Positions 39,866 to 40,463 of a stretch of 64,000 bases of DNA are shown here, piece by piece. The notes under the pieces are model-generated. The model made no database searches, was not told the origin of the DNA, and saw only the letters and a program-made list of their open reading frames with translations. How positions within the stretch are numbered: the stretch's first letter is position 1; every line of letters begins with the position of its first letter. The stretch lies in NCBI RefSeq assembly GCF_054482595.1, contig NZ_CM137008.1; one strand, given 5' to 3'. The position numbers and the translations under genes are program-made.

Positions 39866-40005
39866 ATCAACACCAACCGGAACCTCCACCACGTGCTCGA
39901 ATGAGGTGTGTTGACGTCGGGGGAAACCCTCCTGTGTACCAGCGGGATAGAGAGAAAGACAAAGACCGGAAAACAAACTAAAGCGCCCTTGTGGCGCTTT
40001 AGTTT
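39866..40005 (+). ncRNA. ryjA: Candidate small RNA RyjA, convergent with soxR
   Basis: K-12 carries RyjA between soxR and ghxP; here a terminator hairpin aaactaaagcgccc-ttgt-gggcgctttagtttt (39978-40008) marks a plausible 3' end. The 5' end is not determined. Confidence 0.4.
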
Positions 40006-40463
40006 TGTTCATCTTCCAGCAAGCGTGCGCCGGTACCTTCTTCTCCTAAGCGGTCGCCCGGGTTACGCAACGGGCAATCACTGCGCGAAAGGCAGCCACA
40101 ACCAATACATCCGTCCAGTTCGTCACGCAGCGCTACTAAGGTATGAATGCGCCGATCCAACTCTTCTCGCCATTGGGACGAAAGCTGTTTCCACTCTTTC
40201 GCACTTAACGTATGCCCTTCGGGCAACACGCCAAACGCTTCACCAATGGTCGCGAGAGGAATGCCAATACGCTGAGCAATTTTGATAATTGCAACATATC
40301 GCAACACATCACGTTTATATCGCCGCTGATTGCCGCTGTTACGGATACTGGTAATCAACCCTTTACTTTCATAGAAATGCAGCGCCGATACCGCCACACC
40401 GCTGCGTTTCGCCACTTCGCCGGGGGTTAGCAGCGCTTTAATGCGGGGTAATTTCTTTTCCAT
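39999..40463 (-). CDS. soxR: Redox-sensing MerR-family regulator with 2Fe-2S cluster
   Basis: 154 aa; C-terminal [12 protein letters not shown] cluster motif; HTH at the N-terminus. Confidence 0.95.

Follow-up and report, generated by a model that had tools for sequence, protein, structure and literature searches.

The spacer between ghxP and soxR raises the question of whether it encodes an RNA of its own and, if so, whether that RNA acts on soxR, whose 3' end it meets, or on messenger RNAs transcribed elsewhere. In the 64,000-nucleotide stretch of DNA analysed here (the window), an initial annotation made from the letters alone had placed a candidate RyjA small RNA at 39866-40008, convergent with soxR, and had suggested that the convergence could allow an antisense interaction. 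The identity of the RNA, its conservation, its likely targets and its relation to soxR are considered below.

The small RNA between ghxP and soxR

The ghxP-soxR spacer, for which a length of about 545 bp had been claimed, runs from 39454 to 39998 and thus measures 545 bp. Gene order is that of K-12 (yjcE-ghxP-ryjA-soxR-soxS-pdeC) with the orientation reversed, and the window shows 99.5% identity with K-12 over 5.9 kb, which marks it as DNA of another E. coli strain; within the spacer a single base differs (39458), which lies outside RyjA. The genes and the RNA of this locus are as follows:

38104-39453, minus strand: ghxP coding sequence (ORF list, K-12 annotation, synteny in 43 species)
39866-40006, plus strand: RyjA/SraL small RNA, 141 nt (Rfam RF01408, identity to K-12 b4459)
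39999-40463, minus strand: soxR coding sequence (ORF list and K-12 annotation), with its TAA stop codon at 39999-40001, inside a terminator arm
40549-40872, plus strand: soxS (ORF list)
40875-42470, minus strand: pdeC (ORF list)

The ghxP gene lies upstream of RyjA and is divergent from it, with its start 413 bp from the RyjA +1, and the soxR coding sequence overlaps the RNA by 8 nt according to both the ORF list and the K-12 annotation.

When the whole window was scanned with Rfam, the sraL family (RF01408) matched 39866-40006 on the plus strand with 153.3 bits, the gathering score being 39 (E = 1e-34), and the match covered positions 1-142 of the 142 of the covariance model. The annotation of K-12 MG1655 holds at 4277926-4278066 (minus strand) the entry 'ncRNA ryjA, b4459, small RNA RyjA', also overlapping the soxR coding sequence by 8 nt, and the segment 39866-40006 of the window is identical to it in 141/141 bases and has the same orientation relative to soxR and ghxP. 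This identity, together with the Rfam match, confirms that the RyjA of K-12 is encoded at this position, and the alignment to the K-12 ryjA coordinates proposed as a check was exact over 39866-40006. As for the limits of the candidate, the start was right and the end fell 2 nt past the annotated 3' end (40006), an excess that is immaterial because the 3' end is defined by the terminator. The plus-strand transcript on which the proposal depended has been detected in K-12, whose sequence is identical here (Argaman 2001 and Wassarman 2001, as cited in PMC3753932; PMC5389530; PMC12266141). Compared with the SraL/RyjA family (RF01408; K-12 b4459), the RNA of the window is alike in sequence, length, position, strand, terminator, structure and tig seed, and it shows no difference from K-12 RyjA within the RNA. 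The feature is the known, annotated sRNA RyjA/SraL, and its identification is correct but ordinary.

Of 5426 complete E. coli genomes, 5420 carried the RyjA locus. In most of them PGAP annotates no sRNA and names only soxR under the match; the missing entry is an annotation habit and no evidence of absence. Minimum free energy folding alone would not flag RyjA (z = -1.69). A permissive Rfam scan of 39400-40100 revealed no further RNA family in the spacer, and a partial match on the minus strand proved to be a palindromic echo of the terminator. Recognition of this RNA has little value as a discovery, RyjA/SraL having been found in 2001, annotated in K-12, assigned an Rfam family and provided with two characterised targets; its value is one of calibration, in that a known sRNA was correctly recognised from raw sequence.

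Distribution, fold and promoter

Homologues were retrieved from a collection with one genome per species, by means of an anchored pattern made up of two conserved blocks of the RNA. The 43 loci obtained came from Escherichia, Salmonella, Citrobacter, Klebsiella, Raoultella, Enterobacter, Leclercia, Lelliottia, Pluralibacter, Trabulsiella, Pseudocitrobacter, Silvania, Huaxiibacter and others. Two of them bear labels that look like contamination: L021 (JAEWQV010000038.1, 'Bacillota bacterium MAG') and L027 (CACSKA010000007.1, 'Chryseobacterium sp. 18061') have enterobacterial ghxP-sraL-soxR loci, the SoxR and GhxP proteins of L021 being 100% identical to those of the window, and both are most likely contaminated or mis-binned assemblies.

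Synteny was well maintained. With the window included, soxR was convergent downstream of sraL in 43 of 44 loci, the sole locus lacking it within the flank of ~1.7 kb being that of Citrobacter sedlakii NBRC 105722 (L024), and ghxP was divergent upstream wherever the flank was long enough. The distance from the ghxP start to the sraL +1 was 413-455 bp in Escherichia, Trabulsiella and some Citrobacter, and about 1090-1330 bp in most genera (including loci L003, L006, L011, L016 and L044), a distance from which it follows that an extra gene probably lies between. The Salmonella neighbour of SraL is STM4267, a putative glutathione S-transferase gene, rather than ghxP directly (PMC3753932), and the extra gene appears to be missing from Escherichia.

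The alignment of the RNAs had a mean column identity of 84%, and the blocks invariant in the 43 species comprised nt 10-22, about 48-66 and 90-104, along with the terminator stem. The structural elements referred to below, all on the plus strand, are:

39867-39914, plus strand: 5' domain closed by helix 1 (nt 2-8 with nt 43-49), from covariation
39930-39947, plus strand: central hairpin, nt 65-82, from covariation and also predicted by RNAalifold
39948-39971, plus strand: single-stranded, almost invariant A/G-rich block, nt 83-106 (...AAAGACAAAGACCGG...), from the invariant columns in 43 species
39975-40006, plus strand: Rho-independent terminator of RyjA (terminator scan and folding), doubling as the soxR terminator on the minus strand

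The Rfam consensus structure was projected onto an independent MAFFT alignment of the homologues. Paired bases occupied 95.6% of the cells, versus 40-55% when the partners were slid by 1-3 columns, and none of 500 shuffles was as good. Eight pairs showed compensatory changes on both sides, four of the seven in helix 1 (96% of cells paired, 38 distinct sequences), three of the six in the central hairpin (97.8% of cells paired) and one in the terminator. Helices 2, 4 and 5 were uninformative because they are invariant, and helix 3 was weak (79% paired). In place of the Rfam 5' stem, RNAalifold proposed a long-range CCGG helix joining nt 12-15 with nt 101-104, which we rejected, the displaced stem being the one with covariation; on the CCGG pairing itself covariation cannot decide, since both blocks are invariant in the 43 species. 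These CCGG blocks stand at 39877-39880 and 39966-39969, the first within an invariant stretch resembling an anti-Shine-Dalgarno sequence, AACCGGAACCUCC.

At the 3' end, the terminator scan of the plus strand found a hairpin at 39975-40005 with a 13-bp stem containing 6 GC pairs, a 5-nt loop and a T-run giving a UUUU tail. Its energy was -20.5 kcal/mol on the plus strand and -21.8 kcal/mol on the minus strand, where it is followed by TTTGTTTT; stable on both strands and with this run after it, the hairpin is plausibly bidirectional. The strong bidirectional hairpin over the soxR stop that the initial annotation had pointed out was thus recovered, folding equally on both strands and carrying the stop codon (39999-40001) in its right arm. 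The terminator stem was nearly invariant in the 43 species, the compensatory pair mentioned above being its only one. The hairpin is preceded by an A-rich 5' flank, GGAAAACAAAC, and ends in a tail of four U residues, features that PMC7367173 describes in ProQ-specific ligands and as determinants acting against Hfq, so that the terminator features appear consistent with those of ProQ ligands.

Upstream of the RNA, the following elements were distinguished:

39798-39818, plus strand: A-tract block AAAAATATTGCGGTTAAAAAG, -68 to -48, partly conserved as GAAAAAATTTCGGC.AAAAA in alignment A2
39831-39838, plus strand: CTGGCGAA block, a degenerate -35 region 17 nt upstream of the -10 element, from the alignment
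39854-39859, plus strand: -10 hexamer TACAAT (-12 to -7), read from the sequence and from an alignment of 23 species
39860-39865, plus strand: A/T-rich discriminator TTAAAG(C/T) between the -10 element and +1, conserved in alignment A2

Within the -10 element, -11A (39855) and -7T (39859) were invariant in the 23 species, and a conserved RpoS-type -10 box has been described for the SraL promoter (PMC3753932). The block in the -35 region had the consensus CTGGCRAA, with the GG (39833-39834) and an A (39837) invariant in the same 23 species, and the A-tract block is possibly an UP element or the site of a regulator. A sigma-70 promoter scan detected no consensus promoter upstream of RyjA, an outcome that fits the degenerate -35 element and does not argue against a promoter. 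As judged from sequence, RyjA has a promoter with a conserved RpoS-type -10 region. From the conserved -10 element, the terminator and the covarying pairs we conclude that RyjA has its own promoter, its own terminator and a fold maintained in evolution.

Two readings that would deprive the locus of a functional small RNA can be weighed against these data. One holds that there is no independent RNA at all, the conserved sequence being the 3' UTR and terminator of soxR plus regulatory DNA of ghxP. That PGAP names only soxR under the match in most E. coli genomes could be taken in its favour, but, seen from soxR, the conserved 141 nt are situated downstream of its terminator and come with a plus-strand -10 element and terminator, and the covariation supports an RNA structure of the plus strand. 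Several studies have moreover observed the transcript in E. coli and Salmonella (PMC3753932, PMC5389530, PMC2190706), and published northern blots and RNA-seq already refute this reading; we regard it as extremely improbable. As little credence can be given to the transcript being the mRNA of a small protein, translated from an AUG at nt 36 through a 26-codon frame (MRCVDVGGNPPVYQRDREKDKDRKTN). The frame does exist in the window and in some relatives, but the ATG is retained by no more than 16 of 43 species, the others having CTG, CCG or ACG in its place, and several of the species that keep the ATG have the frame shifted or truncated. Moreover, no Shine-Dalgarno precedes this ORF, the alignment indels do not keep to multiples of three and the substitutions track base-pairing rather than codons. 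The small-ORF reading was rejected on the comparative data, namely the 16 of 43 ATG codons and the broken frames.

Targets, expression and protein partners

The function of the RNA is best documented for its Salmonella homologue, SraL, which belongs to the same family, has a convergent soxR and the same terminator, depends on RpoS, targets tig and rho and is a ligand of ProQ and Hfq (PMC3753932, PMC8136791, PMC6582626). In Salmonella, SraL represses tig (trigger factor) mRNA about two-fold, and the SraL-tig duplex, of 7+3 bp and located just upstream of the Shine-Dalgarno, was established through compensatory mutations, in vivo as well as in gel shifts (PMC3753932). SraL is also described as pairing with the rho leader and blocking Rho-dependent premature termination (Silva 2019, as summarised in PMC6582626 and PMC12360218).

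Pairing with the corresponding E. coli leaders was examined by seed-level duplex scans, whole-length RNAduplex runs of RyjA against the tig and rho leaders having returned meaningless end-to-end duplexes. The scan for tig delimited the following element:

39890-39899, plus strand: tig-pairing seed, nt 25-34, CACGUGCUCG

Here, nt 28-34 (GUGCUCG) and nt 25-27 (CAC) pair with CGAGCAC-U-GUG of E. coli tig, at about -30 to -20, with an energy of -16.4 kcal/mol that was equalled by 11 of 300 dinucleotide shuffles of the leader. In the predicted duplexes, the published 7+3 bp geometry can thus form unchanged with the E. coli sequences; the Salmonella seed differs by one base (G34 to A). For rho, the predicted site joins nt 83-106 with positions -152 to -128 of the E. 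coli leader (-17.5 kcal/mol; 19 of 300 shuffles as good), so that the statistics of both seed duplexes are modest. The best-scoring local rho duplexes, at -290 to -226, were discarded, as a TTGACT-like sequence there points to the rho promoter region, which is probably untranscribed. The tig seed does not belong to the best-conserved segments of RyjA, and in Klebsiella and Raoultella its sequence has diverged; the invariant blocks thus probably have another purpose, such as rho, further targets or the binding of proteins. The literature searched yielded no validation of tig or rho as targets in E. coli, the target work being on Salmonella, and we infer that the regulation shown there works in the same way in this E. 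coli strain.

As for expression, the studies of 2001 in which SraL/RyjA was first found in E. coli detected it in stationary phase (Argaman 2001 and Wassarman 2001, as cited in PMC3753932). Transcription of SraL in Salmonella is directly dependent on RpoS, as determined by northern blot, a lacZ fusion and ChIP: its level was ~500-fold lower in an rpoS mutant, and its promoter was enriched more than 100-fold in RpoS ChIP (PMC3753932). Stationary-phase induction has likewise been described for the E. coli RyjA, which is also listed among the RNAs under RpoS control (PMC12266141). Regarding protein partners, SraL made up ~50% of the RNA bound to ProQ in stationary-phase Salmonella (PMC8136791), and ProQ and/or Hfq can mediate the SraL-rho interaction (PMC7237705). 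Decay of SraL involves polyadenylation by PAP I, PNPase and the degradosome, and Hfq stabilises it about three-fold (PMC2190706); the E. coli RyjA is polyadenylated too and counts among the RNAs that rise most strongly in a pcnB mutant (PMC5389530).

Putting these elements together, RyjA would be transcribed toward soxR from the TACAAT promoter, with its +1 at 39866, and would end at the Rho-independent terminator that soxR uses on the opposite strand. Driven by RpoS, it would build up in stationary phase, with ProQ as the major partner and Hfq as a stabilising one, and its short seeds would pair with the leaders of mRNAs. The tig mRNA would be repressed by pairing just upstream of the Shine-Dalgarno, and rho would be raised, pairing with its leader stopping premature termination by Rho itself. 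The closest parallel to the latter is found in DsrA, ArcZ and RprA, which pair with the rpoS leader upstream of the ribosome-binding site and suppress premature Rho termination, as is proposed for SraL on rho (PMC6582626). In contrast to SraL, they are unrelated in sequence, depend mainly on Hfq and also open a translation-inhibitory hairpin, whereas the target of SraL is the autoregulated leader of the termination factor itself. Overall, we consider it very probable that the feature is the 141-nt trans-acting sRNA RyjA (SraL) of Enterobacteriaceae, with its own promoter, a terminator shared with soxR and pairing to the tig and rho leaders.

The overlap with soxR and alternative modes of action

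The convergence with soxR suggests another role, in which RyjA would be mainly a cis antisense RNA: a duplex over the terminator and the last codons of soxR would lead to cleavage by RNase III, or polymerases would interfere, tying the level of SoxR to stationary phase. The idea is not new, since the overlap of the terminators was already noted by Viegas 2007 (PMC2190706), who found altered SraL bands in a Salmonella RNase III mutant and speculated on a cut in the terminator overlapping that of soxR. The two transcripts would indeed be perfectly complementary over ~40 nt (the hairpin and its flanks), with the soxR stop inside, and in 36 of 44 loci this stop lies no more than 15 nt from the 3' end of the RNA, so that a shared hairpin is common. 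On the other hand, the same geometry arises in every convergent gene pair with a common bidirectional terminator. Complementarity extending outside the shared terminator was not found, 8 nt of it being soxR coding sequence and the rest of the ~40 nt the hairpin, and the complementary segment forms a hairpin of -20 to -22 kcal/mol in each of the RNAs, so that intermolecular pairing must compete with two stable folds. Nor was the overlap conserved among species that have both genes. Taking the 3' end of the RNA as reference, the soxR stop was at -7 in 8 loci, at -2 to 0 in 15, at +2 to +15 in 13, at +24 to +125 in 6 and at +513 in one; coding-sequence overlap was thus restricted to 8 of 44 loci, those of Escherichia and Citrobacter amalonaticus, and 7 loci had a gap of 24-513 nt. 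In Salmonella enterica subsp. diarizonae, for instance, the stop lies ~32 nt past the 3' end, as opposed to the overlap seen here. From this spread we conclude that sharing of a bidirectional terminator is common and that the coding-sequence overlap is a lineage-specific accident, not a conserved design. The most conserved parts of RyjA (nt 10-22, about 48-66 and 90-104) lie outside the overlap as well, and the functions shown experimentally, on tig and rho, are exerted in trans (PMC3753932; Silva 2019, as summarised in PMC6582626).

Antisense action on soxR as the function of RyjA is therefore not supported by the comparative sequence data, and we consider it unlikely. The precedent for such a mechanism is GadY, an RpoS-dependent stationary-phase sRNA that overlaps the 3' end of the neighbouring gadX and in which the cis overlap is a validated mechanism. 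Both sRNAs are thus encoded across the 3' part of a neighbouring gene for a regulator. In the case of RyjA, however, only the terminator hairpin and 8 nt of coding sequence are overlapped, the overlap is not conserved, and no report of an effect of RyjA/SraL on soxR was found in the literature searched. A narrower version would confine the effect to Escherichia, where the stop has moved into the shared hairpin and heavy, RpoS-driven convergent transcription of ryjA in stationary phase might alter the formation or stability of the soxR 3' end, either because polymerases collide at the common terminator or because RNase III cleaves a duplex of RyjA with the 3' end of soxR. We think this improbable to a similar degree; if true, SoxR dosage would be coupled to the general stress response, besides the functions in trans. 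Also improbable, to our judgement a little more so, is that RyjA serves chiefly to bind or titrate a protein, for instance as a stationary-phase ProQ sponge, rather than to base-pair. The share of SraL in ProQ-bound RNA, about half in stationary-phase Salmonella (PMC8136791), the ProQ-type A-rich 5' flank and 4-U tail of the RyjA terminator (PMC7367173) and the invariant blocks left unexplained by the tig seed all fit such a role. Against it, base-pairing action has been proven by the SraL/tig compensatory mutations that restore regulation in vivo and by gel shifts (PMC3753932), regulation of rho is likewise reported as base-pairing in the account given in PMC6582626, and no evidence of titration was encountered. 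Trans-acting pairing with the tig and rho leaders accordingly stands as the preferred mode of action.

Some other sequences of the window may be recorded. In the region upstream of ghxP (39515-39725), GCAAACG(T/A)T motifs occur in the same orientation at 39570, 39613 and 39712, these being three of the five matches in the 64-kb window, and GCGAAACGTT is found at 39515. Two of the motifs are inside 17-nt direct repeats, AAAAAAGCAAACG(T/A)TTA, at 39564 and 39607. The motifs resemble half sites of the PurR box, and ghxP is a purine transporter gene; a search of this upstream region for full PurR boxes gave one match (39710-39725) with 3 mismatches, which is not above chance. Farther away, the Rfam scan located three naRNA4 elements (RF02564), repeated extragenic palindromes of the REP/BIME type, at 21840-21910, 21953-22023 and 32557-32628, all on the minus strand and with 75-77 bits. 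It also returned a full-length bacterial selenocysteine insertion element, SECIS_2 (RF01988), at 19317-19371 on the plus strand with 87 bits; its spacing from ryjA is the one that the K-12 map predicts for fdhF.
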